Below the pieces are notes generated by a model that worked only from the letters and a program-made list of their open reading frames with translations, had not been told where the DNA came from and ran no database searches. A program made the translations under genes and the position numbers. From assembly GCF_988242995.1 (NCBI RefSeq), contig NZ_OZ547043.1: a stretch of DNA of 64,000 bases; one strand, 5' to 3'. Numbering within the stretch: the first letter of the stretch is position 1; each line of letters starts with the position of its first letter. Positions 24,492-55,389 of this stretch are shown piece after piece.

Positions 24492-25892
24492 TCAGGTATG
24501 TTTAAAGCTGTTCTGCTGGGCAATACCCTGCAGTTTCGGGTGATCGCTGAGATATTTCAGGGAGGCTTTGTAGTCTTCCAGCAACAGTTCAGCAAAGTCC
24601 ATTTCGAAGCCGCGACGACACATAATGCGCATCACCACGATGTCGGTGGCTTCACCGCCGAGAGTGAAGGCCGGAACCTGCCAGCCGCGCAGACGCAGAC
24701 GTTCAGAGAGGTCGTAGAGGGTGTATCCCGGGTCTTCACCATCTTTCAGTTTGAAGCAAACCGCCGGGATGCCTTCGTCCGGGCGACCGGTACAGATGAA
24801 CTCATACGGCCCCAGTTTGGCGATTTCATCCGCCAGATAAGCGGCAACCTGGTAAGAGGCGTTCTGTACTTTGGTATAGCCTTCACGACCGAGGCGCAGG
24901 AATTCATAGTACTGTGCAATTACCTGACCCGCCGGGCGGGAGAAGTTGATGGCGAAAGTACCAATCTGACCACCGAGATAGTCAACGTTGAACACCAGTT
25001 CCTGCGGCAGCGCTTCTTCATCACGCCAGATAACCCAGCCGCAGCCCAGCGGAGCCAGACCGAATTTATGGCCTGAAGCACTGATCGATTTCACACGCGG
25101 CAGGCGGAAGTCCCAGACGATATCCGGGGCGACGAACGGTGCCAGGAAGCCACCGCTGGCGGCGTCGATGTGCATGTCGATGTCGATACCGGTGTCGGCC
25201 TGGAATTTATCCAGCGCATCGTGCAGCGGTTGCGGGAACTCATAGTTACCGGTGTAGGTCACGCCGAAAGTCGGCACCACGCCGATGGTGTTTTCGTCGC
25301 AGGCTTCAATCATGCGTTTCGGGTCCATAAACAACTGACCGGGGCGCATAGGGATCTCACGCAGCTCCACATCCCAGTAGCGGGCGAATTTATGCCAGCA
25401 GATTTGCACCGGACCGCACACCAGGTTTGGTTTATCCGTTGGTTTGCCTGCAGCTTCCATACGCTTGCGCCAACGCCATTTCATCGCCATCCCGCCGAGC
25501 ATACAGGCCTCGGAAGAACCAATGGTGTTGGTGCCAACGGCCTGACCATTTTTCGGCGCAGGCGCATGCCACAGATCGGCAACCATGTTTACGCAACGCA
25601 GGTCGATTGCTGCAGATTGCGGATATTCTTCTTTGTCGATCCAGTTTTTGTTAATGGATAAATCCATCAACTTATGGACATTTTCGTCGTCCCAGGTCTG
25701 GCAGAAAGTGGCCAGGTTCTGACGAGCGTTGCCATCAAGATATAATTCGTCATTGATAATCTGGAATGCGACATCATCGCGCATTTCGTGCAGCGGAAAT
25801 CGTTTTGATTCTGCGATAGTGGAAATAGACTTCGCACCAAAACGTGAATCGAGTAGTTCCGACCTTAAATCCGTTACTTGCTTCTTATCCAT
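24492..25892 (-). CDS. gadB: Glutamate decarboxylase beta (PLP-dependent)
   Basis: Track ORF 24492-25961 with start at [21 protein letters not shown] (466 aa); PLP-lysine motif [10 protein letters not shown]; adjacent gadC marks it as gadB rather than gadA. Confidence 0.92.
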
Positions 25893-25972
25893 TTTAAACT
25901 CCTTAAAATGATTGGATCGCATTAAAAAAGTAGGATTTATCGATAAAGTAAGCAAGTGCAAAGGACTCTGGT

Positions 25973-25992
25973 TTAAATAACAAAATCCTAAT
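25973..25992 (-). promoter_or_regulatory. GAD box (GadE-binding site) in the gadB promoter
   Basis: Minus-strand sequence TTAGGATTTTGTTATTTAAA, about 80 nt upstream of the gadB ATG, matches the 20-bp GAD box as recalled. Confidence 0.7.
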
Positions 25993-26253
25993 GTTATTTA
26001 TCGTGAAATATTACGAGAATAATGTTTTTTCATTAAAAAACAATACAATAGAGAATTGCTTGGTGGTAGTAAGGTGTTTTATGTTGTTATTTTTATGCGC
26101 TTTCTATGTCTCCTGAATTATCGCGTAAAAATCAGACATTAAAATATCATTATTAGCACTCGACTATTATTTTGAACGCATTTATAAAATTATTACATAA
26201 AAATGTCGAATATTGCTAAAATCCCCGCCAACGAGGTGTTGACGGGGCTGTTA

Positions 26254-29049
26254 TTATTTTGGCAATAATACTCCGGTATAGGTATTCACCGGATGAGAAA
26301 GATATTGTTTAACGGCAGTGTTAACATTCTCTACCGTCATTTGTTTCAATAATTGCTCCTGCTCAGTCCATGCTGCAGGATCGTCATATTGAATAAGACT
26401 ATTTACAATGGTGTTCGCTAATTGTTGAACGCTACGCTGTTGGATATCGAGGCTGCGCTGAACGTTTTGCTGGTATTCGTTCAGTTCTTGCTCACTGATC
26501 CCTTTAGCCAGACGCTTAACCATCACTTCATTCGCTAACGTTAACAGTTCATCATGTCGTTCTGGTTGACAAGTAAAAGCCAGCAAATGACTGATATCTT
26601 TGGCCTGAGGATCAACCGAGAGGCGAGAAGAAACGCTGTATGCCCCAGAGGCCTGTTCACGAATATTAACGCGTAGATCTTTTGCCAGTGCGACGTTAAA
26701 AGCATCGAGCGCCATACGCGTCTCCAGATTTACAGGTGTCCGGGAATCATAACGCTTCCACTGTGAAACCTGTGCCACAGGTTCATTTTGTTCTTTTACA
26801 GTAACCGATGCGTTGTCCGTCGCGCGAGTTAATGGTTTACCTGCGGCTAATGGCGAATCAGAGTGTTTGATTGATCCTAAGTAACGCGTAATTAACGGCA
26901 GGAGTTTGTCTTCTGCGACATTACCGACAATGACAAACGTGATATCCGCTGGAGATGAAAACAACTGGCGATCGGCAGCCAGCGCATCTGCGGCAGTAAA
27001 CTGTGCAATCTGATTTTCTTGCAGTAATTTCGTGCGGTCATCAGCATAGCGCGTCTCATACATCTGCTGGGCGAATTTCTCCGCTGGACGCTGGTCGAGC
27101 GTTTTCAACGCCTGAATTTGAGCATTTTGTAGCGATGCCCAAATATTATCATTAATCGTGCTGTGAGTGATTCGCTGGTTAATCAACTGGAAACCAGGTT
27201 CAGGGTTATTAGTCCGCGCGCTAACAGAGAGCAATGTATTCATGCCACTGACTTTACTGCTCATGGTTACCGAGTTTTCCGCACTCCAGCGTTTCAGGCT
27301 GGAAGAGGAGAGTTCACCAACGCCGCTTCCGCTTACTGCTTTATTTGCCAGCGCGATAAGTGATTTTTGCTGCGCAGGGAAACTTAAATCGCCTTTATTA
27401 GATACGGCAGTAATTTGTAGCTTTTGCTCTTCACCCGCGGATTTTGCCAGAATAACCCTGGCACCATTGGAAAGTGTTAATGATGTCAGATTCTCAGCCA
27501 GCGTTTCTTTGCTGCTAATTTCCGCCTGTGGGTCAACGTCTACTGTTAACGATAAATTTCTGCCTGGGAAGATGTAAGCCGCCAGCTTTTTGTTGGCGTA
27601 CTCTTTTTCCAGCGCCAGGATAGCCGCAGGAGACAATGCTTTTTTGGCGGCAACCTCATTGTTTACCATTTGCTCCCAAAATGCGTCCTGGTTCTTTCTT
27701 AACTGCTGCCATTTTTCCGCCAGACTTTGCACGGTAATTTGCTGCCACAGACGTTTCGAAAGTTGATATGTCTCTTCCGGCGACAAGAACGGCGTATTAT
27801 TTAATGAGCTGGATGCCAGGCGACTGGTCAGCATACGTAAATCACGTTCAGCTTGCTGATCAACCGCATTTTTCAGCCAGGTGAGACGGGTAGATTTGAC
27901 ATCATCGAGTTCTTCAGCAGAAAAACCATGCTGATCAATAGTTGCCAACTCTGCCATTAATGCATTCGCAGCATCCTGCATATTATCGTCTCGTGCATTT
28001 ACACGGAAAAACAGCGATTGATAATCGGGTGCAATTCTAACGCTGCGCGCAGTGCCGCCAGAAATAGTCTTCAACTCGCCCGACTGTATACGTTCCTGCA
28101 GACGTTGATTGAACAGCTGAACTAACATGCTCCATTCAGCTTGTTCGATAAAGCTTTGCTCATCGCTCACTTGCACCATTGGCAGGCGATAATAGAGTGC
28201 GATGCCGTTCACCCGGTTTTCTTTATCATTAATGATATTAAAGCGCAGGTGGTTTTCGGCTTTTGTCGGCCAGACGCGATTTTCAGCTGCTTTGTTAGCC
28301 GGAAGCTTACTTAAATTGTCCTTTATCAGCGCCAGCGCTTCTTTACTGTCGATATCGCCGACCACGATAAAGGTCATATTATTTGGTTGATACCAGCGTT
28401 GATAAAATTGGCGCAATTGTGCCGGTGTGACCGTGGCGACAGTATCCATCAGGCCGATAGGTTCACGGTCTAAATTACGGGTATTTGCCAGCAGGAAAGG
28501 GCGGCGCGCCTGAGAGGTGCGCCATTTCACATCCTGATGGGCACGCCATTCCTCAGTAATTACGCCGCGTTCAGCGTCTACTTCGAGTTTATCAAAGGTC
28601 GCGGCATTACCCCATTCACTGAATATTGCCATCACTTGTTGCAGATTTTGTTTCTGCGTAGTCGGCAAACTTACCTGATACACCGTTTCGTCATAGCTGG
28701 TATAGGCATTAACATCGCGACCAAAGCGCAGACCCATCGACTCAAATGTTTCGATGACTTTATTACCCGGCCATGTTTTTGTGCCGTTAAACATCATATG
28801 TTCTACAAAATGAGCCACGCCGCGCTCATTGTCCTCTTCCTGCAATGAACCGGTATGAATTTGCAGCCATAAATTTACCTGATCCTTTGGTTGAGCATGC
28901 GGATAAATCATATATCGCAAGCCATTGTCCAGTTGCCCGGTAATTAACTTTTCATCCTGCGGTAAGGCGGCGGCAATCAGTCGCCCGGGGAGCAACAGAG
29001 TTACCACTAACGTCAGTAAGAAACAGAGGTTTCTCATAATTATCTCCAT
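26254..29049 (-). CDS. pqqL: Periplasmic M16-family zinc metallopeptidase
   Basis: Roughly 930 aa with signal peptide and inverzincin motif HFVEHMMFNGT; start approximate (track ORF extends to 29064). Confidence 0.88.
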   Translation of the reverse strand: MEIIMRNLCFLLTLVVTLLLPGRLIAAALPQDEKLITGQLDNGLRYMIYPHAQPKDQVNLWLQIHTGSLQEEDNERGVAHFVEHMMFNGTKTWPGNKVIETFESMGLRFGRDVNAYTSYDETVYQVSLPTTQKQNLQQVMAIFSEWGNAATFDKLEVDAERGVITEEWRAHQDVKWRTSQARRPFLLANTRNLDREPIGLMDTVATVTPAQLRQFYQRWYQPNNMTFIVVGDIDSKEALALIKDNLSKLPANKAAENRVWPTKAENHLRFNIINDKENRVNGIALYYRLPMVQVSDEQSFIEQAEWSMLVQLFNQRLQERIQSGELKTISGGTARSVRIAPDYQSLFFRVNARDDNMQDAANALMAELATIDQHGFSAEELDDVKSTRLTWLKNAVDQQAERDLRMLTSRLASSSLNNTPFLSPEETYQLSKRLWQQITVQSLAEKWQQLRKNQDAFWEQMVNNEVAAKKALSPAAILALEKEYANKKLAAYIFPGRNLSLTVDVDPQAEISSKETLAENLTSLTLSNGARVILAKSAGEEQKLQITAVSNKGDLSFPAQQKSLIALANKAVSGSGVGELSSSSLKRWSAENSVTMSSKVSGMNTLLSVSARTNNPEPGFQLINQRITHSTINDNIWASLQNAQIQALKTLDQRPAEKFAQQMYETRYADDRTKLLQENQIAQFTAADALAADRQLFSSPADITFVIVGNVAEDKLLPLITRYLGSIKHSDSPLAAGKPLTRATDNASVTVKEQNEPVAQVSQWKRYDSRTPVNLETRMALDAFNVALAKDLRVNIREQASGAYSVSSRLSVDPQAKDISHLLAFTCQPERHDELLTLANEVMVKRLAKGISEQELNEYQQNVQRSLDIQQRSVQQLANTIVNSLIQYDDPAAWTEQEQLLKQMTVENVNTAVKQYLSHPVNTYTGVLLPK

Positions 29050-29093
29050 GCGAAAACCGGGCAAATTTACCCGGTTAAGTAAAATCCGAACTA

Positions 29094-31466
29094 TTAAAAT
29101 TTCATGCTGACATCAAGCCAGAAAGTACGGCCACTGGCGTAGGTCGCCACACCGGTATTCGTTGTATCAACCGCGGTTTTGCTATCCAGTACATTGAGAA
29201 TATCGGCACTGATCGTCAGGTTTTGTTGTTTCAGAAATTGTGGCGTCCAGGACAAGCGGGTGTCCCAGGTCAGGCTGCTATCCAGTTTTTCGTCAACATA
29301 CTGCTTGTAATCTGAATATTCGCTGATGTATTGCGCATTCGTCTTACCCAGGATAATGCGAGCTTTACGCGCTTCTTGCCAGGCTAGCGTATTCGCCCAC
29401 ACCAACCCGCTCGGTTGATGCGTGAAATCCATGTTTAAGGAGATCTTTAATGGGTTATTAAAATCTGCCACTGGAACGCTATCGTAAGAGACCAGATTAC
29501 GGTTATAAACCACCTGGTTATCACCGGTATTGCTTTCCTCATAACCATTGTTTAACGACAAGTTGCCCTTGCTCTTGATATAGCTAAAGACAATTTGCGG
29601 GTTAATATCTACCTGGCTGATATGCAGGGGTTCGGCCAGTTCAAAACTGAGGTTGAACGAATGCGTTTTAGTTTTGCCGTCGTTGTTATATTCAGTAATG
29701 GTGGTTTTAGTCGCGCTGTCGGTACGACTGCTTTTACTGATTTGATCATGCGCTTCACGATAAACATAGTTTGCACGCGCAATAACGTTCTTACCGATTT
29801 TCTGCTGCAACCCCATTGCCAGTTCATCGTTATAAGGCGTTTTCAAATCCTGATAACGCGTCAGGGTTTTATTGCCTGATACCGATTCCGTCCAGCTATT
29901 GCGGATATCACGTAATCCCATATCAAGAATATTACCGCCATAGTAACGGTTATAACCTGCGGTAATCATTGAGGTTTGATCAGCAAAAATATCCCATTCC
30001 GTCATAAAGCGCGGGGAGATATTGTGGTTTGACAGATAGTTGTCATAGTCATACCGCACGCCGGGCATTAATGACACATTACGCCAGCTAATGCGATCCG
30101 CCATATACAGCGTGTAGTTGTCAATTCCCAGGCTGCCTTTACCTTTATGGTAAATGGTATGGTTAGTTTTCTTTCCGGCAGCATTAATCACATAGGATTC
30201 TGACTGGTTATGGCGTTCAGTCCATGCATCGGAATAGATGTATTCCGCGCCGAAGTAGGGTTGATGAGAAACATTACCCACGGTGAATTTTTGCCAGTCC
30301 AGGCGTGTTTTGAAGGTGTAATTATCTACAGCCTGGGAAATGTGTCCTAATCCGCCACGGGTGCAACGCCCTATAATATCACCATATGTACATGAAAGTT
30401 CGGTGTACCAGATGTCATGATCGTGACGGGTATAATCACTAATATGATCCCAACCAACGGTGGTACGTAGTTTGGCCCATGCGAGCTGCGTATCCATATC
30501 CCATGCCAGACCGTAGGATTTATTACCCATTTCACGATCAGACTGCGGGAAGGTGCTGGTATTATAATCACGACTGGAGCCGGTATATTTTAATGTTAAA
30601 TCGTGGGTAAAGCGGTCGCTGGCAAACCAGGTAAATTTGCTCACTGCGGTATCGATAACGTTTTTATACTGTGCCCGACCGGCGACAATGCCGTCATTCG
30701 AAACATAATCCGCGCGGGTGATATCAGACTGGCGGCGCGATAAACCGGCGGTAACGCCGAAGTTATCAGCGAGTTCCTGATTCAACGCCAAAGTATAAAA
30801 GTTCTTTTTAAAATCTGGAGAGTAATAAGTACTTCCTGAAGAACCTTGATTAAATGCGCTCTTGTTATTCTCATCGATATGCGATGTTAACCAGTCCGAA
30901 CGCGTAGTGCGATAACCCAGTTTCACGCTGCTATCATCAGCATTGAAGCGTTTGATCTTTGCATCAATTACCCCGCCATTGAAGCGACCAAATTCAACCG
31001 GCACAAAACTGTCATAAAGCGTCACATTGTCAAGTAAGCTGACATCTAGATAATACCCCTGTGACATCCCGCTAATATTGGTTGCACTACTGGCATCGGA
31101 CTCATTCGCTGGGTTCAGGTTATTAGTTGCACTAATACCATCAATCAAATAGGCATTCTGGTAGGGCGACGCACCGTGAATAGAGATTTTCTCCGGGCGA
31201 ATATCTCCCTGGTTCAACGAGGTACTTTGCGTTGAATCCATGCGCACAGCAGGGTTGGTTCTCAGCAGATCGCTGATATTGCCATTCCCGGTCGGTAAAC
31301 GCTCGATGCTTTCACTGGTGTAATGCGTGTTGCCGTTTACGGGTACAGGGACAGGAGCATAGACCGTCATCTCTTCAAAAACATGCATGTACATATTTTT
31401 GTCATCGACGGCCTGCGCCACATCAGCGCCACATAAAATGACGCCAGGAATAAGAACTCGCTTCAT
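29094..31466 (-). CDS. yddB: TonB-dependent outer-membrane receptor
   Basis: 790 aa; signal peptide, plug and barrel, C-terminal ...WLDVSMKF ending in Phe. Confidence 0.88.
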   Translation of the reverse strand: MKRVLIPGVILCGADVAQAVDDKNMYMHVFEEMTVYAPVPVPVNGNTHYTSESIERLPTGNGNISDLLRTNPAVRMDSTQSTSLNQGDIRPEKISIHGASPYQNAYLIDGISATNNLNPANESDASSATNISGMSQGYYLDVSLLDNVTLYDSFVPVEFGRFNGGVIDAKIKRFNADDSSVKLGYRTTRSDWLTSHIDENNKSAFNQGSSGSTYYSPDFKKNFYTLALNQELADNFGVTAGLSRRQSDITRADYVSNDGIVAGRAQYKNVIDTAVSKFTWFASDRFTHDLTLKYTGSSRDYNTSTFPQSDREMGNKSYGLAWDMDTQLAWAKLRTTVGWDHISDYTRHDHDIWYTELSCTYGDIIGRCTRGGLGHISQAVDNYTFKTRLDWQKFTVGNVSHQPYFGAEYIYSDAWTERHNQSESYVINAAGKKTNHTIYHKGKGSLGIDNYTLYMADRISWRNVSLMPGVRYDYDNYLSNHNISPRFMTEWDIFADQTSMITAGYNRYYGGNILDMGLRDIRNSWTESVSGNKTLTRYQDLKTPYNDELAMGLQQKIGKNVIARANYVYREAHDQISKSSRTDSATKTTITEYNNDGKTKTHSFNLSFELAEPLHISQVDINPQIVFSYIKSKGNLSLNNGYEESNTGDNQVVYNRNLVSYDSVPVADFNNPLKISLNMDFTHQPSGLVWANTLAWQEARKARIILGKTNAQYISEYSDYKQYVDEKLDSSLTWDTRLSWTPQFLKQQNLTISADILNVLDSKTAVDTTNTGVATYASGRTFWLDVSMKF

Positions 31467-31503
31467 TTATTTTTATCTCCGTACAGCAGGGCTTTTATTG
31501 TTT

Positions 31504-33189
31504 TTATAAAACCGCGCTAATGTCACAAATATCATCGGCCAGGTTCCAGACACCGGGTTGATGTGTAACCATAATGACGCCGCTTGTGGGTAGTTTTTCA
31601 CGCACTAAACGCAGTAAGCGGATAGCCTCTTGTTCCTCAAGATGAGAGGTAGTTTCGTCAAGAAATATCCATTTCGGACGTCGTAAAATTAATCGTGCCA
31701 GGGCGATACGTTGTTTTTCGCCGCTGGAAAGAATATCTCCCCAGCGATCGTGGTCATGAATACGCGCAGCCAATTTCCCCAGACCAACCTGATGCAGTAT
31801 TTCGCTCAACGATTTATCGTCTACGGGCAGGGGAAGTGCTTTACAAATAATCTCTTTCAGTAAGCCGGTTTTGATTAACGGTGTTTGTGACACATACCAA
31901 CTGTCAGCAGGAGAAGAAATATCACCTTTGAACCACGGCCAGCAGTGGGATAATGTTTTAAGCAGTGTGGTTTTTCCCGCACCAGAGTAACCTTTCAGTA
32001 ATAGCCATTTGCCTGGCGAAACATGAAAGTTCAGGTTCTCTAATATGATCTTATTATCAGGAGTACGAATACTCGCGTCAGCCACTTGTACCGCATGTTG
32101 GCAATTTTTAGGCTTATTCGTAGGGCGCTGTTCGGTGAGTTGATGGAACTCATACAAACGATCGATAACCGCAGCCAGTTCAGCAAGTTCGTCATATTTA
32201 TAAATAAACCAGCTTAAATTGTTCGATACCAGCATAAATGCCTGGCGCGATTTCATCAGTCCGCCCAGATTGATCTGTCCGCTAATAAACTGTGGCAATA
32301 ACAGAAAGTAGGGAAGAACGCTAAGCGAGCGCGAATAAATATTCTGCCAGTAATCAAGCCAGCGCTGACGATTCATTAAACGATGCCAGTTCTCTTTAAT
32401 GGTATGAAAATTGTCGCTCAACTCCTGGCGTTGTAGAGACTCAGCATTGCTTAGCGCAATCAGTTCAGCCTGCTTATTATGCTGCACAAGATTAGTTCGA
32501 AATGTCGCTTCGCTACGTTGTTTTTCCACATTAAGCGGACGAATACGTTTACCCACCTTATGAGTAAATAAAGTTCCACCGATCACAATGAGCACGACGG
32601 TATAGACCATATACCCCTGGATATTCCATTCTGTTCCACCAACAGTGAATGAGAGCGTACCCGCGCTTTGCCAAAGAATAACGGTAAAGGTGATCAGCAT
32701 GCTAAGCGACTGGATGAAGCCAAATGAAAGGCTGAGCGTTTTACTGATCAGCAAGAGAATGTCCTCAGCGATACGTTGGTCAGGGTTATCTGTATTTTTA
32801 TGCTCGCCGTAGATTTGCGTGAAGTAGTAGTTTTTATCTGCAAACCAGCGATTAAGGTAGTAATCTGTTAACCATTCGCGCCAGCGAATAGTCAGTAGTT
32901 TAATTAACCATGTTTTGTTTACGGATATTAATACAAAGATCCCCAGCAGGGCAGGGAACCAAAGAACAAGCTGCCAAAGCTTATCGGTTTCTTTCTGGCT
33001 TAGCGCATTGAAAAAATCATTATTCCAGTCGTTTAACCAGACCTGAATTTTAACAACGCCAAGGATCATGGCGAGGATAATAATGATTAACAGCACTGAA
33101 GTTTTATTATTCTTACGCAGCCAAAAGGGCTTCAGCAGACAGAGATACTTTGCTATCAACATACAAAACGTAATGGGAATGGTTATCAT
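31504..33189 (-). CDS. yddA: ABC transporter, fused permease/ATPase
   Basis: 561 aa; N-terminal TM domain, C-terminal Walker A GYSGAGKTT and signature SSGEKQR. Confidence 0.88.
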   Translation of the reverse strand: MITIPITFCMLIAKYLCLLKPFWLRKNNKTSVLLIIIILAMILGVVKIQVWLNDWNNDFFNALSQKETDKLWQLVLWFPALLGIFVLISVNKTWLIKLLTIRWREWLTDYYLNRWFADKNYYFTQIYGEHKNTDNPDQRIAEDILLLISKTLSLSFGFIQSLSMLITFTVILWQSAGTLSFTVGGTEWNIQGYMVYTVVLIVIGGTLFTHKVGKRIRPLNVEKQRSEATFRTNLVQHNKQAELIALSNAESLQRQELSDNFHTIKENWHRLMNRQRWLDYWQNIYSRSLSVLPYFLLLPQFISGQINLGGLMKSRQAFMLVSNNLSWFIYKYDELAELAAVIDRLYEFHQLTEQRPTNKPKNCQHAVQVADASIRTPDNKIILENLNFHVSPGKWLLLKGYSGAGKTTLLKTLSHCWPWFKGDISSPADSWYVSQTPLIKTGLLKEIICKALPLPVDDKSLSEILHQVGLGKLAARIHDHDRWGDILSSGEKQRIALARLILRRPKWIFLDETTSHLEEQEAIRLLRLVREKLPTSGVIMVTHQPGVWNLADDICDISAVL

Positions 33190-33213
33190 TAGCGAAAATT
33201 GATTGTGCCATCC

Positions 33214-33237
33214 AATGATTATCTATGGCAATGATTT
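33214..33237 (-). promoter_or_regulatory. Putative Fur box upstream of yddA
   Basis: Plus-strand sequence aatgattatctatggcaatgattt; the minus strand contains GATAATCATT, matching the Fur consensus core, about 30-50 nt upstream of the yddA start. Confidence 0.45.
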
Positions 33238-33479
33238 ACTGATGAAATTTATTTAAGTATCATTTAACAATATGAAATATAAAGGAATATTTCATTTTCA
33301 GTGGTTATGGTTATGCTATTGATAATCAAGGATATTGCTAATGCCCTGACGCATACCACGTAAGCCAGGATTTTCGCAAGGGAAGATGATGATGACGAAA
33401 CACCCGACAGGAATATGTGTCAGGTGCATTGTTAAGGTCATAAGAAGGAGGCTAAGACTGGAGCTAAGAGGGAGCGTTA

Positions 33480-34637
33480 TTAATTATTCTCCATTTGTCT
33501 TGCAACATCCATGATGTGGTAAAGCGGTACTCTGTTCTTAGCTAACTCCACCATGGCGTTCATATAAGGCACCATGGTTGAAAAAAGGATTTTATAACCT
33601 TCACAAAAATAGGAAACAGTCTCATTGTTTACTTTAGTAATACGATGCTTAGGACAACCGCCATTGCAGATAGGTTTATATGCACATTGCTGACATTTCG
33701 CTGAAATCCGTTTTTTTTGCGCTGTCAGTTGTACACTGTTCATCGTTTTGAGTTCAGATTTATTAATGTTTCCAATTTTGTACTGTGGATAGACAAAATG
33801 GTCGCATTCGTAAATGTCTCCATTACTTTCAACAACCAGATTATCCTTGCAGGACTCCTGGAAAATACAACTGGTATGCCCATTCCCTAAAAAACGGCTG
33901 ACAAAGCTTTCAAACTGACGGATGAAAATTTCACCCACATCGTTTTTAACCCATTGCATAAAAATGGTTGACATAAACTTGCCATAAGCCGTGGGAGGCA
34001 CAGAAAAATCAATGATACGGAATGTGTTCTCACTATGACCACTGAAATCAATATTCGGCGTCCCGGTTTCTAGCAATTCGATAAATTGCATATGTTTACT
34101 GCCGATAGATTTTAAAAAATGATAAACCTCAAGAGGGTAATGGACATTAACGTTATTAATGACGGTTAACGTATTAAACTCAACTTGATATGATTTCAGA
34201 CGCTCGATGGCTGCTATCACTTTTGCAAAAGTACCGTTACCTGAATTACTGCGTCTGTAACGGTCATGTAGCTCCTGGGGGCCATCGATCGAGATACCAA
34301 CCAGAAACTCATGTTCTTTGATAAAAGCACACCATTCATTATTCAATAAAATGCCATTCGTTTGTAATGCATTAAAAATACGTTTTTGGCCTGCATAGCG
34401 TTGTTGATAGTGAATAACTTTACGGAAAAAATCCAGGCCAGCCAGAGTGGGTTCACCGCCTTGCCAGGTAAAATAGACCTGATTGCCAGACGCTGCGATA
34501 TATTGTTTGATGAACTCTTTCAGAGTACTGTCATCCATCCATTTTTCATGAGTAAACTGCGACTCTTTTTCAAGGTAAAAACAGTAATCACATTTGAGAT
34601 TACATTGAAAACTGGAGGGCTTGGCTGTAACGTGCAT
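33480..34637 (-). CDS. ydeM: Radical-SAM anaerobic sulfatase-maturating enzyme homologue
   Basis: CNLKCDYC (Cx3Cx2C) radical-SAM motif near the N-terminus plus extra Cys clusters (SPASM-like) near the C-terminus; start approximate. Confidence 0.85.
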
Positions 34638-49797: not shown

Positions 49798-50817
49798 CTA
49801 TCGCGTCCATACCTGCTTAACATCTTTCGTTTGCGGCGTATTTTGCGCCATGATCCCCGTCAGAACATGCGGCTGGTAGGTTTCTTCCAGAAACTGAATT
49901 TCCTCCGGACTTAGTTGAAGATTTACTGCGTTTACCGCGCCATCGACATGAGCTTTTTTTGTAGCCCCTACGACAGGTGATGTGACTTTTGTCAGCAGCC
50001 AAGCGAGAGATATTTCCGTCATTGACACCAGATGGCGTTCGGCCAGTTCGGCTACACGCTCAATAATGCTGCGATCCTGTTCAGCCGTGCTGTCATATTT
50101 TCCACGCGCATAGTCATCCTCTGTGGCTCGCCGCGTATAGCCTTCTTTACGAGAGAGGCGGCCGCTGGCCAGCGCGCTATAGGGGGTCATTGCGATATTA
50201 TCCTCAGTGCACAGGCCGAAGAGCTCCCGTTCATCTTCGCGCATAATTAGATTGTAGTGGCTCTGTACGGAAACAAAGGGCGTCAGCCCTTCGCGTTCAG
50301 CAAGGGCGTTCGCCTTCGCCAGCTGCCAGGCATAGCAGTTTGAAATACCAACAGCTCGTACTTTGCCAGCAGTAACAGCGGTATGTAACGCTTCAAGCAC
50401 GTCGATAATGGGCGTGTTGTAATCCCAGATGTGGTAGATGTAGAGGTCGATATAGTCCATCCCCAGATTCTTCAGGCTCTGGTCAAGGGATTGAGCGATT
50501 GCCTCTTTTCCGCTGATCCCTCCGGCAATTTGTGCGGGGGTTCGCGGCAGAAACTTGGTGGCCAGGACGATATCATCGCGTTTCGCCATCTCCCGTAATG
50601 CCCGGCCAACGTATCGCTCACTGGAGCCATTCTGGTAGGCTATAGCGGTATCGTAAAAGTTGATGCCCTTTTCAAGGCCATAGCGAATGATGTCGCGGCT
50701 TGCTGTTTCGTCCAGCGTCCAGCTATGCTGACCCGTCGACGGATCGCCAAACCCCATGCATCCCATGCAGATGCGGGAAACAAGTAAGTCACTTTTACCG
50801 AGCCGGGTATACTGCAT
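49798..50817 (-). CDS. Aldo/keto reductase
   Basis: 339 aa; AKR motifs (GINFYDTAIAY, catalytic Tyr/Lys context). Confidence 0.8.
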   Translation of the reverse strand: MQYTRLGKSDLLVSRICMGCMGFGDPSTGQHSWTLDETASRDIIRYGLEKGINFYDTAIAYQNGSSERYVGRALREMAKRDDIVLATKFLPRTPAQIAGGISGKEAIAQSLDQSLKNLGMDYIDLYIYHIWDYNTPIIDVLEALHTAVTAGKVRAVGISNCYAWQLAKANALAEREGLTPFVSVQSHYNLIMREDERELFGLCTEDNIAMTPYSALASGRLSRKEGYTRRATEDDYARGKYDSTAEQDRSIIERVAELAERHLVSMTEISLAWLLTKVTSPVVGATKKAHVDGAVNAVNLQLSPEEIQFLEETYQPHVLTGIMAQNTPQTKDVKQVWTR

Positions 50818-50819
50818 TG

Positions 50820-51392
50820 TTATTCTCCCTCTGGATTATTCACGACGGAATTGAGCAGTTCGACAAGCCTTGAAGCGTGTTCCCGGGCAAGCGTTTTTTG
50901 CTGCGCGATTTTGTCGGCATCCCGGTCGGCATAGCTGATACCGCAGGTATAAACCGGCGCCAGCAGCTCAAGATTGCACAGCCTTGCCGTGGTTTCGAAC
51001 GGAATAAGATACTCTTCAATGGTATTGCCAAAGAAACTGTCGACGGTATAGAGCTCCTCTGGCGCTCCCGTTGTAAAGGAGAGGATCAGCTTTTTACCGC
51101 CCAGTTTCGCCGTTGAGCCATGCGCGAAGCCGTGAACAAAGACCTCGTCCAGCCATTTTTTCATTAATCCTGGCAGCCCATACCAGGAAAAAGGGAACTG
51201 CCAGACAATCACATCGGCCCTGAGCAGGCTTTTCTGCTCCGCCGCGATGTTGAATTTGCCATCCGGATAGAGCCTGTCCAGACGACGAATCTCAACATCG
51301 GGAAGGGCGGTCTCCACTTCATCAAGAATAGTGGCATTGGCGACGGAATGGGTAAGCTCAGGATGACCTGAAATAACAAGGATATTTTTCAT
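50820..51392 (-). CDS. Flavodoxin-like NAD(P)H:quinone oxidoreductase family protein
   Basis: 190 aa; MKNILVISGHPE... N-terminus and WQFPFSWYGLPGLMKKWLDEV typical of NAD(P)H dehydrogenase (quinone) family; 3-nt gap to the downstream AKR gene. Confidence 0.75.
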   Translation of the reverse strand: MKNILVISGHPELTHSVANATILDEVETALPDVEIRRLDRLYPDGKFNIAAEQKSLLRADVIVWQFPFSWYGLPGLMKKWLDEVFVHGFAHGSTAKLGGKKLILSFTTGAPEELYTVDSFFGNTIEEYLIPFETTARLCNLELLAPVYTCGISYADRDADKIAQQKTLAREHASRLVELLNSVVNNPEGE

Positions 51393-51542
51393 TTCAATCA
51401 GTTAAACATCTTTGGTGAATATTAAATCCAGTATAGAGTGACAACATTATTTTTTTAGAGCAGTAAAGGCTCATTCACTTTTAGGCAAAAACTAATAATT
51501 GTCGGCTGATCACAATGTGCTCAGTCATCATGAAACGGTGAA

Positions 51543-52220
51543 CTAAACCGTGATGCCCAGTAAACGTTCTGCATTGCGAAACGCGATGGCCTCTTTTTCA
51601 GCCTTGTTGACGGGCAGACTGTCTATAAAGGTTTTTACACCGTCCAGGGGTCTGATAGGGATAACCGACGGAGAACAGGATCCTTTCAGCACCCATTAAC
51701 GCGTAGATAAACTGGAAGTGCGGCAGTGTTAGCATATGACGGGGTAACGTAAACGTGTTCCTGGAAGGTTCTCGTTAGCGTGCGTGACAGACCCGTTGCA
51801 GCCAGTGCTAGGCTGTCATCAAGACGCTGGAGCCAGAAGGGTAACATCTCCCCCCAGTGGCCACTGATTACCTGCAGGTTGGGATATTTATCAAATGCGC
51901 CCGATAACATCAGCCGCAACAAATGGATCCCCGCTTCGTGATGCCAGCCCCAGGCAAACATAGAAAGCCTGGCGTTGACCTCTGCGCTGAAGCCCGTGAA
52001 GTAGGCCTGCTGTACGCTTTTAAGCGGTAACCCGGGATGAAGATAGAGTGGCACATTCAGTTTATTAAAGCGGGAAAGCAGGGAGTCGGTCAGGATTATG
52101 ACCATCAGCGACGGTTTTCCCCCTGTCGCCAAGGAAAGGTGCCTGCTCAAGCGCAACAGGCATACACGCGCGCCCTAACTCGCTGTCGAGATAATTTTCT
52201 TCGAGGCAAATGATTTTCAT
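51543..52220 (-). pseudogene. Frameshifted amidohydrolase-2 (TIM-barrel metal-dependent hydrolase) gene
   Basis: Coding potential is split over three frames: MKIICLEENYLDSELG... (from ATG at 52220), a 156-aa middle ORF (51686-52156) containing ISGHWGEMLPFW, and a C-terminal piece ...AEKEAIAFRNAERLLGITV* ending at 51543. Confidence 0.55.
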
Positions 52221-52322
52221 ATTCTCACCATTCATACAAAGCAGTAAAAGTGATACAGATTAGAATCACCCGGAACAGCCCGTTCGTGTGTGTCATTCAT
52301 GACAGTCTGTTCCGGACGGGCT

Positions 52323-53270
52323 TTACACCATCGGTTTTTCCCAGGCGCCTCGTGTATCCACTCTGGTCTCTGCGGCGAGTTGTTCCAGCAGGATGATTTC
52401 CTCATCGCGTAACTGGATGTCTGAAGCGCAGGCGGCGTCCAGAACGTGATGGACTTTAGTCGCACCAACGAGGGGAAGGGTACCTTTCACAATAGCCCAT
52501 GCGATGGATATCTGTGCCACGCTGGCATTCCTTTCGGCTCCCATTTTTTTCATGGCGGCGGTTAGTCTTTCTATCTGCGGCAGTACGGCGTTATAACTTT
52601 CGGCCCGGCCACTCCCGGCAGGCATGGGATGATTTGAATCATAACGACCACTGAGCGCGCCTTGCTCCAGGACCATGTAAGCAAAGAACGTGATGTTATT
52701 TTGTCGGCAATAATCAAGGATCCCGGCCTCTTCAGAAGCGCGATAGAGCAGGCTGTAGTGATTTTGTACTGCACTGAGGGAATAACCGGAAGCGTTAAGG
52801 ATTTCATTGGCGCGTCTGATTTGTGCCAGATTGTGGTTGGAAACACCTACGCGTTTTACCTTACCGCTTTGTAAAAGTGGGATCAGTCCTGGCGTCCATT
52901 TTTCGACGTCGAGGGGATTATGGATCCAGTAGATATCAATCGCGTCCACGCCCAGGCGCCCAAGGCTGGCCTCAAGCATATCGCTGACAGGCTGCGCAGA
53001 CTGCTTGTCCGCAATCTGCGGCGTGAATTTGGTGGATAAAATTATGTTCTCGCGGGGAAACTGACGGACTAATGCTCCCAGCGCAGTCTCGGAACTCCCC
53101 ATACCATATACTGCTGCGGTATCCCAGAGATTGAGGCCCTTACTCATGGCCGCAGTGAACACTTCTGCCATCTGAGTATCAGAAAGATGATTACCAAAGA
53201 CGGTGTCGCCGCCGGCAAAGCCTGTGCCCCAGGACCATGTACCTAGTGCGACTGGAGGTAGTGTTTTCAT
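52323..53270 (-). CDS. Aldo/keto reductase
   Basis: 315 aa; AKR motifs (LWDTAAVYG, IDIYWIHNP). Confidence 0.8.
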   Translation of the reverse strand: MKTLPPVALGTWSWGTGFAGGDTVFGNHLSDTQMAEVFTAAMSKGLNLWDTAAVYGMGSSETALGALVRQFPRENIILSTKFTPQIADKQSAQPVSDMLEASLGRLGVDAIDIYWIHNPLDVEKWTPGLIPLLQSGKVKRVGVSNHNLAQIRRANEILNASGYSLSAVQNHYSLLYRASEEAGILDYCRQNNITFFAYMVLEQGALSGRYDSNHPMPAGSGRAESYNAVLPQIERLTAAMKKMGAERNASVAQISIAWAIVKGTLPLVGATKVHHVLDAACASDIQLRDEEIILLEQLAAETRVDTRGAWEKPMV

Positions 53271-53343
53271 ATTCAGCTCCTGAAAAAAGGCCGGATCGTG
53301 GCTGACTTAAACCGGCCAAGTAAGGTGAGTAACGATGAATTAA

Positions 53344-54033
53344 TTAAGCTGTCCGGCGGAGTGCATTTAACAGCGCCACACCAACCCCATGTGCTGAAGC
53401 GGGATTCTGCCCCGTGATAAGGCGATCGTCGGTAACCACGTTTTCAGACCAGTTTGGAGCTTCATGATAAAGCGCACCATGCTCGCGAAGTGCGGTTTCA
53501 AGCAGGAAGGGAACCACATCTGTTGTGTGAACTTCTTCCTCTTCCTTGTTGGTAAAGGCCGCCACATTTTTCCCTTTTATCAGGTATTCGCCGCTACTGA
53601 GTTTTGCGTCAACCAATGCCGCAGGCCCGTGGCAGACGGCTGAGACAATCCCATCACTTTCATACACTTCGCGGATAATACGCTGGGCATCCTGATTATC
53701 ACGGAAATCCCACATGGTCCCATGACCACCTGCAAAGAAAACTGCGCTGTAATCGGCACCTTTCAGCTCGGATAACGCAGGTGTTGTTGCCAGGCGCTGC
53801 TGAAAATCGGTTTCGTTCCAGTACCAGGCGTTAACAGGGTCGCTGAGGTCAAATCCATCCACCGGTGGCTGCCCCCCGCGAATACTGGCTATTGTTGTTT
53901 TTATTCCGGCATCTTCCAGTACTTTCAGCGGATGAGTCAGCTCGGCCAGGAAAAAACCGGTTGGTACACCGGATGCGCCTTTAATCGGATGGCTGGAAAC
54001 GACACATAGCACTGGTTTATATGCAGGTTTCAT
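53344..54033 (-). CDS. DJ-1/PfpI (class I glutamine amidotransferase-like) family protein
   Basis: Roughly 229 aa; nucleophile-elbow-like AVCHGP; start uncertain (track ORF extends to 54045). Confidence 0.75.
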   Translation of the reverse strand: MKPAYKPVLCVVSSHPIKGASGVPTGFFLAELTHPLKVLEDAGIKTTIASIRGGQPPVDGFDLSDPVNAWYWNETDFQQRLATTPALSELKGADYSAVFFAGGHGTMWDFRDNQDAQRIIREVYESDGIVSAVCHGPAALVDAKLSSGEYLIKGKNVAAFTNKEEEEVHTTDVVPFLLETALREHGALYHEAPNWSENVVTDDRLITGQNPASAHGVGVALLNALRRTA

Positions 54034-54041
54034 ATCGGTCC

Positions 54042-54353
54042 TCACTCTTTATTTTTAAATTCATCGGCGAAGAGATTTTCCCAGTTAATAAAGGAGCCAA
54101 GCGGTATACACTCGAAGCTTAGTAAGCCTGCTTTTGCCAACGGGAATTCGGCCATAACGTTCATCGCTTCATCGACAGAGTCACATTCAAGAAAAATAGC
54201 GACGCCAGGTCTGTCCTGACGGAAGTAGATGTCGCGGATGAAGCCTGATTTATACAATCCCCAGGCGTGCAGCGCTTCAGCGTTGAGGTGCGGAGCATAT
54301 TTCTCCAGCGATGCTCCAGGGGCAGGGATATCCAGACATAAAATTCGCATCAT
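54042..54353 (-). CDS. Small alpha+beta-barrel protein, possibly muconolactone-isomerase-like
   Basis: 103-aa ORF first in the operon; weak pattern similarity to muconolactone isomerase and other dimeric alpha/beta-barrel proteins; assignment tentative. Confidence 0.45.
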   Translation of the reverse strand: MMRILCLDIPAPGASLEKYAPHLNAEALHAWGLYKSGFIRDIYFRQDRPGVAIFLECDSVDEAMNVMAEFPLAKAGLLSFECIPLGSFINWENLFADEFKNKE

Positions 54354-54489
54354 AGTCTCCTGAACTCAGGTCGTTGTAGAAAGAGACTAAAGTATAAGAG
54401 GCGTATTTCAGGAAGATTAGAGGGTCATTGACTTAAGCATTTTTAGACTGTACTTAATAATCAGGCGAGAATTGCTTTAGGAAAACATT

Positions 54490-55389
54490 ATGAATAACGC
54501 TCTTTATAACCAGATTCGCATCTTCCAGAGCATTGCGCGGGAGGGCAATATTTCGGCAGCCGCAAGGAAACTGGAAATTACGCCTCCCTCCGTCAGCAAT
54601 GCACTAAAGCTGCTGGAAGAGTATATCGGCCATCCGCTTTTTGTGCGTACGACCCGCCGTATAGAGCTGACGGAAACCGGTCAATTATTGCTGGAACAGA
54701 CCGCTGCGGCGGTGGAGTCGCTGGAAAACTCACTTGAAAGCATTCGCGACCAGCATCAGGAGCCCTCTGGGATGGTGCGAATTACGCTCTCGCGTTTTGC
54801 CTACCTGTTAATTCTTAAGCCTGCGATGGCAGAATTCTGTCAGCAATATCCGGGTATACAGTTAGAAATTTCGGTCTACGACGGTACCGTGAATATCATC
54901 AAAGAGCGTTTTGATCTGGGGATCCGTTTTGGCGATATTCTTGAGGGAGGGGTGGTGGCCCGACCGTTAATGAAACCGTTTCGTGAAGGATTATATGCAT
55001 CCTCAGCGTATCTCTCCCGACATGGAACGCCTGAAGTGCCGGCAGATCTCTGTCATCACCAGCTGATTGGTTACCGTTTTATCACCAACAACCGCATCCT
55101 TCCGCTGCTCCTGAACGATCGCGGTGAGCAGTTGACCGTTGAGATGCCGGGGCAGTTAATCAGCAACGATATTGACGTTATGGCAGACGGGATCCGTAAC
55201 GGGCTGGGAATTGGGCGCTTGTTTGAGCCTGTCTGGCAGTTACAGCCGGACAGGGAGCGCTTTATTCCGGTGATGGAGAGCTACTGGAAAACCTACCCGC
55301 CAGTGTATCTCTATTACCCCAAAAACGCGGGTAAAACGAAAAGAGTGAAGGCCCTGATTGATTTTCTGATATCCACTACGGGGCGATAA
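54490..55389 (+). CDS. LysR-family transcriptional regulator
   Basis: 299 aa; N-terminal HTH (ISAAARKLEITPPSVSNALKLLEE) and LysR substrate-binding domain; divergent from the redox operon. Confidence 0.85.
   Translation: MNNALYNQIRIFQSIAREGNISAAARKLEITPPSVSNALKLLEEYIGHPLFVRTTRRIELTETGQLLLEQTAAAVESLENSLESIRDQHQEPSGMVRITLSRFAYLLILKPAMAEFCQQYPGIQLEISVYDGTVNIIKERFDLGIRFGDILEGGVVARPLMKPFREGLYASSAYLSRHGTPEVPADLCHHQLIGYRFITNNRILPLLLNDRGEQLTVEMPGQLISNDIDVMADGIRNGLGIGRLFEPVWQLQPDRERFIPVMESYWKTYPPVYLYYPKNAGKTKRVKALIDFLISTTGR

Follow-up and report, generated by a model that had tools for sequence, protein, structure and literature searches.

The yddA-yddB-pqqL Operon of Escherichia coli: A Fur-Controlled Locus for a Putative Protease-Associated Import System

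Organization and Distribution of the Operon in E. coli

The window analyzed here is a stretch of 64,000 nucleotides (contig NZ_OZ547043.1, assembly GCF_988242995.1), in which positions 26254-33189 are the chromosomal yddA-yddB-pqqL operon of E. coli. In the window ORF map, this segment is filled by three intact, co-directional ORFs on the minus strand, with intergenic gaps of 37 and 44 nt (Table 1). The mechanical ORF of pqqL extends to a TTG at 29064, and the equivalent of the K-12 start lies at 29049. Alignment to the K-12 proteins showed identity at 917 of 931 positions in PqqL, 777 of 790 in YddB and 557 of 561 in YddA (98.4-99.3%), with no frameshift or stop in any of them. Together with the ORFs and the detected domains, these values confirm an earlier interpretation made from the letters alone (hereafter the sequence-only reading), which had identified the trio as yddA-yddB-pqqL with a TonB-dependent receptor and an M16 protease. 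The operon described in K-12 and CFT073 (b1496-b1494; PDB 6OFR, 6OFS and 6OFT) is the same locus, as gene order, lengths and neighbors agree and the differences from K-12 are only allelic (14, 13 and 4 amino acid substitutions in PqqL, YddB and YddA, respectively). The flanks consist of gadC and gadB on one side and yneP, ydeM and ydeN on the other, with gadB and yneP/ydeM as in K-12, and the 200 nt preceding yddA, which contain the Fur cluster described below, match K-12 at 100% identity. The three genes are co-transcribed and are induced more than 30-fold in urine (PMC3855560). A consensus scan detected no convincing terminator after pqqL, and an Rfam scan of positions 25500-34000 detected no RNA family (E ≤ 0.1).

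Table 1. Coordinates of genes and sequence features in the yddA-yddB-pqqL region of the window
Feature	Position	Strand	Description and basis
pqqL	26254..29049	-	Periplasmic single-chain M16 zinc protease, FusC homologue, 931 aa; PDB and Pfam matches
Inverzincin catalytic motif HFVEH, PqqL residues 80-84	28798..28812	-	Regular expression on the translation; distal Glu167 present
yddB	29094..31466	-	TonB-dependent outer-membrane transporter, FusA family, 790 aa; phmmer against PDB, Plug domain
TonB-box-like motif EEMTVYA, YddB residues 31-37	31356..31376	-	Translation, judged by eye
yddA	31504..33189	-	ABC transporter, fused permease/ATPase, YddA/BclA clade, FusD homologue; 561 aa as annotated
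Secondary Fur-like sites	33073..33094		12.5 and 9.2 bits (weight matrix); within the 5' end of the yddA coding sequence
Fur-binding cluster (predicted here)	33169..33193		19-mers 33175-33193 and 33169-33187; weight matrix; published box
Candidate sigma-70 promoter	33202..33231	-	TTGCCA, 18-nt spacer, TGg-CACAAT (extended -10); consensus scan, 9/12 + TG
Weak Fur-like element GCCATAGATAATCATTGGA	33211..33229		6.0 bits (weight matrix); inside the candidate promoter spacer

By megablast, a 7.6-kb stretch with annotated pqqL, yddB and yddA was matched in 5411 of 5426 complete E. coli genomes, approximately 85% of which keep at least 80% of it; the best listed match was strain E300010 (98.9%), and all other complete E. 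coli genomes were below 99%. The operon is deleted in approximately 15% of complete genomes by loss of 6.3 kb (window 27166-33469). One ST131 genome that was examined is among them, and the operon is therefore dispensable in a successful bloodstream pathogen, which sets limits to its portrayal as a general virulence factor. All three genes are under purifying selection, with dN/dS values of 0.11, 0.09 and 0.04 for pqqL, yddB and yddA, respectively. Several strains carry IS elements within or next to yddA.

The Encoded Transporters and Protease

In a phmmer search of the PDB, the only solved matches of YddB at E ≤ 1e-5 were its own structure (6OFR) and FusA (4ZGV, E = 7e-80). A Plug domain was detected with Pfam, and none of the NCBIfam models, including those for siderophore receptors, matched the protein. 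A likely signal peptide (MKRVLIPGVILCGADVAQA) precedes the TonB-box-like motif, for which the yardstick was what we take to be typical TonB boxes, such as EDTITVTA of FhuA, and the crystallized chain starts at residue 30 (6OFR). The extracellular pocket of YddB measures approximately 28 x 29 Å (PMC6793856). The proposal made in 2013 that YddB is a FepA-like siderophore receptor was rejected on the ground that no siderophore receptor appears among the PDB matches at E ≤ 1e-5.

PqqL matched its own structures (6OFS/6OFT), FusC (6B03, E = 4e-60 over residues 9-930) and the M16 peptidase 9LDY (E = 2e-82), and is composed of one Peptidase_M16 and two M16_C domains in Pfam. Its N-terminus carries a hydrophobic, signal-like segment, and the protein is periplasmic and proteolytically active, cleaving F/Y-F/Y-V/A peptides and leaving human or plant ferredoxins and globins uncut (PMC6793856). 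A review of December 2025 lists the same HFVEH and Glu167 residues in its P31828 entry and gives the substrate as n/a (PMC12731061); the statement of the sequence-only reading that the substrate in E. coli is not established thus remains accurate for the literature of 2025-2026. PqqL scored 47.5 bits against the 320-bit cut-off of TIGR02110 (PqqF) and is therefore not a PQQ-synthesis enzyme, a candidate role that was rejected. Although it shares the M16 family and the HxxEH motif with PqqF/PqqG of PQQ biosynthesis, PqqL differs from them in being periplasmic and in having four domains in a single chain, and its gene name is historical; E. coli lacks pqq biosynthesis genes and makes no PQQ (PMC3855560). 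No NCBIfam model exceeded its cut-off for PqqL or YddA either, so none of the three proteins has a curated equivalog.

In YddA, Pfam detected ABC_membrane_2, SbmA_BacA and ABC_tran (E = 1.8e-43, 2.4e-33 and 2.4e-18, respectively), and a Walker A motif (GYSGAGKT) and a signature motif (LSSGE) are found at residues 400 and 487. The best solved relative in a search against the PDB was 6TQE (E = 3e-67), which we take to be Rv1819c of Mycobacterium tuberculosis. In a paper of April 2026, the M. tuberculosis cobalamin transporter Rv1819c is the closest structural homologue of YddA, BclA peptide importers nest inside the YddA clade and YddA itself is described as "of unknown function" (PMC13316013). 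As in other members of this YddA/BclA/Rv1819c clade, an ABC_membrane_2/SbmA_BacA membrane domain is fused to a C-terminal ATPase domain, which YddA retains in contrast to SbmA/BacA, and the characterized members import peptides or hydrophilic cargo (PMC13316013; bioRxiv 10.1101/2022.03.09.483586); for example, uptake of ubonodin needs the YddA of B. cepacia (bioRxiv 10.1101/2022.03.09.483586). In E. coli, the reports conflict: overexpression of yddA increased metabolite depletion from serum and changed the uptake of amino acids and dipeptides (PMC10971958), whereas one study described YddA as an ATP-dependent multidrug efflux pump based on MIC and dye-efflux data that suggest vanadate-sensitive efflux of norfloxacin and ethidium (PMC9728188). 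Other, earlier screens found no yddA drug phenotype, as far as they are summarized in PMC10971958. No NCBIfam exporter model reached its cut-off. The label "ABC exporter", given by the sequence-only reading, thus suits the fold of YddA; as a transport direction it is doubtful and probably misleading, because the nearest characterized relatives are importers, and the Fus model discussed below, which needs an importer at this step, also counts against it. By analogy with these relatives, YddA may transport peptide or other hydrophilic cargo inward.

The Fur Box, the Candidate Promoter and the Start of yddA

Iron control was assessed with a Fur weight matrix trained on 17 Fur-controlled K-12 promoters, which scored between 10.5 and 21.2 bits when each was left out in turn. 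Scoring of this kind, which the sequence-only reading had proposed as a check, placed the top match of the whole window at 33175-33193 on the minus strand (GCTAATGATAACCATTCCC, 18.3 bits). This box takes fourth place when ranked with the leave-one-out scores of the training promoters, and sites as strong occurred in 3 of 100 Markov-simulated 64-kb windows. A second 19-mer of 11.2 bits (33169-33187), shifted by 6 bp, overlaps the main box. K-12 and two divergent lineages of E. coli share the sequence of the resulting cluster, and the divergent lineages compared do not vary anywhere in the promoter and Fur region. The box at 33175-33193 had already been published by Subashchandrabose 2013 (PMC3855560), and Chen 2007 (PMC2189734) described a 25-bp, two-site cluster of 19.6 bits, located between promoter and start codon without overlap of a strong promoter, for which only weak repression was predicted.

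The cluster overlaps the annotated ATG of yddA (33189-33187), and its center lies 22 nt upstream of Met10. The true start of yddA is probably Met10 at 33162 and the annotated one wrong, although we have also termed this a smaller possibility. A start at Met10 would change the reading of the box position, since the Fur box would then lie upstream of yddA, in the leader, and not in coding sequence. The Fur-like box that the sequence-only reading had reported upstream of yddA is probably GATAATCATTGGA (33211-33229), an element wholly upstream of the annotated ATG that scores 6.0 bits on its own. Its claim is therefore supported as regards a strong box and iron regulation, but the strong box overlaps the annotated ATG, and the element that is wholly upstream is the weak one. 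The latter is unchanged in the five E. coli sequences compared and is not kept in the locus of the E. fergusonii type, in which the TGGCACAAT motif of the candidate promoter is kept.

The consensus scan of the region for promoters and terminators gave no excess of matches over shuffled sequences, and the candidate promoter is therefore weak evidence by itself; TTGCCA/TGgCACAAT alone deserves mention, on account of its position and conservation. The main Fur cluster starts 8 nt downstream of the candidate -10 hexamer. The secondary Fur-like sites fall in an AT-rich stretch that encodes LLIIIILAM.

Several published observations bear on regulation. Fur ChIP signals were found at the operon in K-12 and CFT073 (PMC4676285, PMC7157518), the operon was up-regulated in a fur mutant by qPCR (PMC3855560), and BW25113 and CFT073 cells both contained more PqqL protein when exposed to bipyridyl (PMC6793856). 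At the transcript level, dipyridyl alone gave no induction in CFT073 (PMC3855560). Judging from the high-scoring box predicted at its promoter or 5' end, the operon is a direct member of the Fur regulon, for which in vivo occupancy and derepression are available in the literature; the iron regulation that the sequence-only reading expected is thus well borne out. The same reading had staked its proposal on Fur regulation together with a phenotype under iron limitation. Fur regulation holds, whereas pqqL mutants and yddB mutants, the latter also in a strain without all other iron TonB-dependent transporters (TBDTs), grow normally in iron-limited LB (PMC6793856).

Conservation of the Gene Trio and Its Fur Box in Other Bacteria

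The ABC-TBDT-M16 trio was found with unrelated flanks in a locus of the E. fergusonii type (YddB 86% identical), in two further loci (60% and 43%) and in an Orbaceae genome (45%), and it is also present in Muribacter muris (28%) with rearranged gene order. A Corticibacter relative, P0039 (34%), lies outside the loci compared. In the four co-linear loci, the best Fur match of each locus of approximately 13-17 kb is located 16-87 nt upstream of the yddA homologue, with scores of 17.8-20.9 bits and a partner site shifted by 6 bp in every case. In the three divergent ones among these four loci, the DNA around the box could not be aligned by eye, and the box is kept nonetheless. A Fur box, as predicted with the weight matrix, is thus the non-coding feature that the trio has kept in four divergent loci; this speaks for iron status as the ancestral signal of control and lends weight to an iron-related cargo. 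A TonB-like (FusB) gene was found neither in the operon and its flanks nor in the five related loci.

Comparison with Known Import Systems and Possible Functions

Crystal structures of YddB and PqqL and a model in which they form a "protease-associated import system" were reported by Grinter 2019 (PMC6793856). The archetype is Fus of Pectobacterium (FusA-FusB-FusC-FusD), for which the same course of outer-membrane import, periplasmic cleavage and inner-membrane import has been proposed, and the likeness that the sequence-only reading saw to such systems is upheld by the FusA and FusC matches and by this model. Both the FusA-family transporter (YddB) and an adjacent FusC-type, single-chain, four-domain HxxEH protease (PqqL) are matched here, and iron-responsive expression is paralleled by the conserved 18.3-bit Fur box and published expression data (PMC6793856, PMC3855560). 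YddA, a candidate counterpart of FusD, has the domain architecture of a fused ABC transporter and is encoded together with a TBDT and an M16 protease in the five related loci, and its gene was named a FusD homologue by Grinter 2016 (PMC5095587). On the other hand, the gene order differs, YddB is only approximately 24% identical to FusA, PqqL, unlike the Fus protease, cuts no ferredoxins (PMC6793856), and the system-specific TonB homologue FusB, which is required in Fus and binds cargo (PMC7593965), has no counterpart. Since the wider family was defined by Grinter 2019 through a TBDT and a protease, the absence of FusB separates the operon from Fus proper only. Like classical Fur-repressed siderophore systems (FepA, FhuA, CirA and similar ones), the operon combines a promoter-associated Fur box with a TonB-dependent outer-membrane transporter and an ABC transporter of the inner membrane, but where those systems have a periplasmic binding protein and a type I/II ABC importer, it encodes an M16 protease and a type IV ABC transporter.

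This interpretation has already been published, including the structures and model (Grinter 2019), the FusD homology (Grinter 2016) and the Fur box, ChIP, derepression and bacteremia fitness (2007-2020). The locus represents a conserved, Fur-controlled pathway with a role in bloodstream fitness, two solved structures and a cargo question that the literature has already posed, to which the window gives no new handle. The points added here are modest: the conservation of the Fur box across bacteria, the placing of YddA in an importer clade and the probable Met10 start.

The identities of the genes, the structures, the organization as an operon, the binding of Fur and the derepression are established here or in the cited papers, and so are the location of PqqL in the periplasm, its proteolytic activity and the joint conservation of the trio and its Fur box. 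On this basis, we regard it as rather likely that the operon encodes a Fur-repressed, three-compartment uptake pathway related to Fus. When iron is plentiful, Fe-Fur would block transcription by occupying the 25-bp cluster (33169-33193) that closely follows the -10 hexamer, and when iron is scarce, a single mRNA would serve all three genes. YddB, a FusA-type transporter with an unusually large extracellular pocket, would bind a small protein or large peptide and pass it to the periplasm, presumably energized by the housekeeping TonB, which is proposed because the operon lacks FusB. There, the clam-shell M16 zinc protease PqqL would capture and cut the cargo, freeing either peptide fragments or a cofactor that most likely contains iron, and YddA, ATP-driven and of a type IV "exporter" fold but an importer clade, would move the released product into the cytoplasm. 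A more specific version, which we hold only tentatively and consider doubtful, is that a folded protein of the host or microbiota is imported via the housekeeping TonB alone, without a FusB-like puller, and that YddA takes up peptides or a peptide-bound cofactor made by PqqL. If true, this would be a protein-to-peptide uptake pipeline mechanistically unlike Fus.

Three other explanations were weighed against the Fus-related uptake pathway. The same import and processing steps might bring a benefit other than iron, such as a peptide nutrient, another cofactor (cobalamin-like) or a signaling or competitor peptide, with Fur tying expression to host-like conditions. The cargo of YddA relatives (peptides, and cobalamin in Rv1819c; PMC13316013; bioRxiv 10.1101/2022.03.09.483586) and the altered amino acid and dipeptide uptake on yddA overexpression (PMC10971958) are in line with this, as are the cleavage by PqqL of F/Y-F/Y-V/A peptides and of none of the iron proteins tried, the lack of a growth phenotype under iron limitation (PMC6793856) and the induction of the CFT073 operon by urine and not by dipyridyl alone (PMC3855560). 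However, only one non-coding feature, a strong Fur box, is kept upstream of the trio in four divergent loci, PqqL rises with bipyridyl in both strains (PMC6793856), and Fus, the only family member with a known cargo, takes up iron (PMC6042079, PMC6071955), so that a non-iron benefit appears unlikely. Considerably less probable is a system that works outward, in which drugs or a peptide leave the cytoplasm through YddA, the peptide is processed by PqqL in the periplasm (as the old "pqq" name implies) and YddB releases the product. The type IV "exporter" fold of YddA, the matches of its ATPase domain to exporter families and the suggested norfloxacin and ethidium efflux (PMC9728188) agree with such a direction, and so do the complementation of Methylobacterium pqqE/F mutants by E. 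coli pqqL and the existence of TBDT-like proteins serving secretion, in so far as these are cited in PMC3855560 and PMC6793856, respectively. Yet no precursor-peptide or biosynthetic gene was found in or beside the operon, PqqL falls far below the PqqF cut-off in an organism that makes no PQQ (PMC3855560), YddB, which carries a plug and a TonB-box-like motif, has an importer as its nearest relative, the closest relatives of YddA are importers as well (PMC13316013), and its drug phenotype was absent in the other studies as summarized in PMC10971958.

It is most improbable of all that the operon is a dispensable, decaying remnant without cargo in the present niches of E. coli, whose proteins are Fur-controlled but useless. 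Such a state could account for the 6.3-kb deletion, the IS elements in or beside yddA and the absence of an in vitro phenotype (PMC6793856), but it is difficult to reconcile with dN/dS values of 0.04-0.11 over the three genes, with the retention of most of the 7.6-kb stretch in approximately 85% of genomes and with a promoter and Fur region that is invariant across divergent lineages. Moreover, yddB and pqqL add fitness in mouse bacteremia, and yddA is a colonization factor in calves (PMC3855560).

Gene content and protein identities

The interval 26254-33189 is filled by three open reading frames in the same orientation, with gaps of 37 and 44 nt between them. By megablast, 5411 out of 5426 complete E. 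coli genomes matched a 7.6-kb stretch covering the locus; the genes are annotated there as pqqL, yddB and yddA, with gadB-gadC as neighbours at one end and yneP-ydeM-ydeN-ydeO at the opposite end. The gene arrangement of K-12 is the same as in the window, with a DNA identity of 98.1% and with 917/931 (PqqL), 777/790 (YddB) and 557/561 (YddA) identical residues; no frameshift or stop was found in the three genes relative to K-12. Their dN/dS values (0.11, 0.09 and 0.04 for pqqL, yddB and yddA) indicate purifying selection on all of them.

Coordinates of the genes and regulatory features in the window
Feature	Position	Strand	Description	Score (bits)
yddA	31504-33189	-	ORF as annotated, 561 aa
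yddB	29094-31466	-	ORF, 790 aa
pqqL	26254-29049	-	ORF, 931 aa; purely mechanical ORF reaches TTG at 29064
yneP	33392-33514	+	Small ORF, 123 nt, between yddA and ydeM; overlaps ydeM 3′ end
Main Fur site	33175-33193	-	GCTAATGATAACCATTCCC; top match of whole 64 kb	18.3
Overlapping Fur site	33169-33187		Shifted 6 bp from main site	11.2
Weak Fur-like element	33211-33229		GATAATCATTGGA; wholly upstream of annotated ATG	6.0
Candidate promoter	33231-33202	-	TTGCCA, 18-nt spacer, TGg-CACAAT
Site within hipA coding sequence	56492-56510		GACAGTAATACTCATTATC; second-best match in window	18.1
Third Fur-like site	52206-52224		Between aldo/keto reductase gene and amidohydrolase gene fragments, accessory region	14.4

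Two crystal structures of PqqL itself (6OFS/6OFT) were matched; the characterised protein that follows is FusC (6B03, E=4e-60), the M16 protease of the Pectobacterium ferredoxin uptake system (Fus). PqqL contains a Peptidase_M16 and two M16_C domains, and its translation has an HFVEH motif at residues 80-84 as well as Glu167. A role as a PqqF-type enzyme was rejected, the score against the PqqF model (47.5 bits) being far under the cut-off of 320, and "pqq" in the gene name is thus historical. Apart from its own structure (6OFR), YddB has a single solved relative at E<=1e-5, namely FusA, the ferredoxin receptor (4ZGV, E=7e-80). YddB contains a plug domain, its signal-like N-terminus is followed by a TonB-box-like EEMTVYA, and no NCBIfam siderophore-receptor model matched it. 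YddA combines ABC_membrane_2 and SbmA_BacA membrane-domain matches with ABC_tran; among solved structures it is most closely related to 6TQE (E=3e-67), a structure of Rv1819c. The trio of TonB receptor, periplasmic M16 protease and ABC transporter described by the sequence-only reading is thus borne out in genes, domains and K-12 identities.

The listed top match of window 26000-33600 was strain E300010 (98.9% identity), other complete E. coli genomes being below 99% and mostly at 97-98%; in contrast, the 241-nt promoter region is 100% identical to strain CFSAN018748. Judged by sequence comparison, the window comes from a lineage without a close representative at the operon locus among complete genomes. 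The YddB search also gave rare "fusion" proteins of 900-1200 aa (hits P0003-P0005, P0009-P0011 and P0016-P0017), in which YddB is joined to segments of PqqL or YddA; frameshifts or gene-calling errors in individual assemblies, and not true fusions, most likely account for them. The small gene yneP is annotated in K-12 and appears elsewhere as "hypothetical protein".

Fur regulation and the start of yddA

For a symmetric 19-bp Fur matrix, the best site was taken from every one of 17 K-12 promoters with established Fur control (fepA-fes, fepD-entS, fepB-entC, fhuA, fecA, fecI, sufA, ydiE, ydhY, cirA, ryhB, exbB, fhuF, fiu, bfd, tonB and gpmA). The matrix reproduced the textbook consensus GATAATGATAATCATTATC, and the training promoters scored 10.5 to 21.2 bits in leave-one-out analysis (n=17). 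A site at least as strong as the main site occurred in only 3 of 100 windows simulated with a first-order Markov model. Together with its overlapping partner, this site corresponds to the box GGGAATGGTTATCATTAG noted by Subashchandrabose et al. in 2013 as "overlapping the start codon" (PMC3855560) and to the two-site, 25-bp cluster of 19.6 bits reported by Chen et al. in 2007 (PMC2189734). The box seen by the sequence-only reading was probably the weak element GATAATCATTGGA.

The Fur cluster begins 8 nt downstream of the candidate -10 hexamer, in agreement with Chen et al., who located it downstream of the promoter and ahead of the start codon (PMC2189734), and the promoter scan overall showed no enrichment over shuffled sequences. 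Approximately 73 nt, from upstream of the candidate -35 through the Fur cluster, are invariant in five E. coli lineages, and the next 100 nt upstream contain up to 10 differences.

The annotated start of yddA is probably wrong, the real start probably being Met10, the tenth codon (33162, minus strand). This is suggested because, in the E. fergusonii-type locus, an in-frame TAG separates the counterpart of the 33189 ATG from the following ATG, all five homologues align to E. coli YddA only from Met10 (MLIAKYLCLLKPFW), "codons" 8-9 have three alleles among five E. coli sequences, and comparison with K-12 gives two non-synonymous and no synonymous differences in codons 1-9, against 2 and 25 in codons 10-561 (P=0.015). 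Since no obvious Shine-Dalgarno sequence was found at either ATG (33189 or 33162), we can only infer this start. If it holds, the Fur cluster would be centred 22 nt ahead of the coding sequence, an arrangement shared with the E. fergusonii-type locus. A Fur box is present, as had been proposed, but the strong one overlaps the annotated ATG and would be upstream of yddA only with the start at 33162.

Published data agree with iron regulation, including Fur ChIP in K-12 and CFT073 (PMC4676285, PMC7157518), up-regulation in a fur mutant (PMC3855560), induction of PqqL by bipyridyl (PMC6793856), and assignment of yddA to the "Fur-2" iModulon in a Fur regulon study of nine E. coli strains (PMC10164565). 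Co-transcription of the genes (PMC3855560), induction of PqqL by urine (PMC6793856) and induction in serum (PMC4145685) have been published as well.

Elsewhere in the window, the hipA site may be a chance match or belong to the intragenic Fur sites that Chen et al. described. The region 50000-60000 contains aldo/keto reductases, a LysR regulator, a glutamine amidotransferase-like gene, hipBA and an ECSE_1600-family autotransporter; it is present at >=80% coverage in only 407 of 5426 complete genomes and therefore represents an accessory island beside hipBA.

Homologous loci in other bacteria

The YddB search returned relatives with 86% (E. fergusonii), 69%, 60%, 57%, 43-45% (including an Orbaceae genome) and approximately 25-34% identity, and contigs were fetched for several of them and scanned with the E. 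coli-derived Fur matrix. The order SbmA_BacA-type ABC transporter, TonB-dependent transporter and M16 protease is kept among unrelated flanking genes in four loci (E. fergusonii-type, the 60% locus, the Orbaceae genome and the 43% locus). In all four, the yddA homologue is preceded, at a distance of 16-87 nt, by the best Fur match of the entire 13-17 kb (17.8, 20.3, 20.9 and 18.9 bits), with a 6-bp-shifted partner in each. Because the box is kept while the upstream DNA around it in the three divergent loci could not be aligned to E. coli by eye, these comparisons identify it as a conserved functional feature rather than inherited background. The Muribacter muris locus (28%) has its ABC gene inverted, and its best Fur match (13.1 bits) is 25 nt upstream of the receptor gene; in Neisseria wadsworthii (26%), the receptor gene adjoins a binding-protein-dependent ABC importer, and there is no M16 protease.

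No TonB-like gene was found in the four co-linear loci or the Muribacter muris locus. Fus includes the TonB-like FusB, whereas the yddA-yddB-pqqL operon does not, and K-12 is not known to have more than one TonB. YddB, if it is a protein importer, would use the housekeeping TonB or a somewhat different mechanism.

An orphan YddB paralogue (69% identical) occurs in an E. coli O146 assembly (L016, 7001-9364) and an SRA assembly (L017, 3687-6050), near IS66 and IS110 elements. Within the available DNA it is accompanied by neither a YddA nor a PqqL homologue, and a strong Fur box of its own (19.8 bits) lies 183 nt upstream.

Transport direction, cargo and phenotype

The likeness to protease-associated import systems had already been recognized by Grinter et al., who named YddB, PqqL and YddA as homologues of FusA, FusC and FusD in 2016 (PMC5095587), and in 2019 solved the YddB and PqqL structures and coined that term (PMC6793856). 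The sequence-only finding is thus correct and already known, its model being that of these authors, and its interpretation is supported except for the label "exporter". That label fits the type IV "exporter" fold of YddA, and one paper reported YddA-linked drug efflux (PMC9728188); earlier screens gave no drug phenotype for yddA (PMC10971958). The weight of evidence favours YddA as an importer, because its closest structural homologue was named as Rv1819c, a cobalamin transporter of M. tuberculosis, BclA peptide importers are nested inside the YddA clade and a YddA-like ancestor apparently gave rise to SbmA (PMC13316013), B. cepacia YddA is required for the lasso peptide ubonodin to be taken up (bioRxiv 10.1101/2022.03.09.483586), overexpression of E. 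coli yddA increased the depletion of serum amino acids and dipeptides (PMC10971958), and the Fus model also requires an importer (PMC5095587). The YddA family was still called "of unknown function" in April 2026 (PMC13316013).

YddB has a pocket of approximately 28 x 29 Angstrom, and PqqL is periplasmic and proteolytically active and did not cleave human or plant ferredoxins or globins (PMC6793856). Its substrate was listed as "n/a" in a December 2025 review (PMC12731061), as the sequence-only reading had supposed; the cargo question is real and well posed in the literature, and the window makes it no more tractable. As to an iron-limitation phenotype, yddB or pqqL mutants had no growth defect in iron-limited LB (PMC6793856). 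Both yddB and pqqL contributed to fitness in mouse bacteraemia (PMC3855560).

Loss of the operon in E. coli

The yddA 5′ region is present in 4613 and at least 80% of the operon in 4602 of 5426 complete genomes (approximately 85% each), leaving approximately 15% without most of it. In the O25b:H4-ST131 strain 5392, window 27166-33469 (6.3 kb) is precisely deleted, removing the 5′ two-thirds of pqqL, all of yddB and yddA, the promoter and yneP, so that the 3′ pqqL remnant abuts ydeM. Other strains carry elements annotated as IS1A or IS3 in or beside yddA. Because the operon is absent or disrupted in these genomes, the view that it is a general extraintestinal virulence factor is tempered. In strain HS-01 (L024), an IS1 remnant stands in place of the yddA promoter, the Fur box and the first ~14 codons (window 33147-33340).
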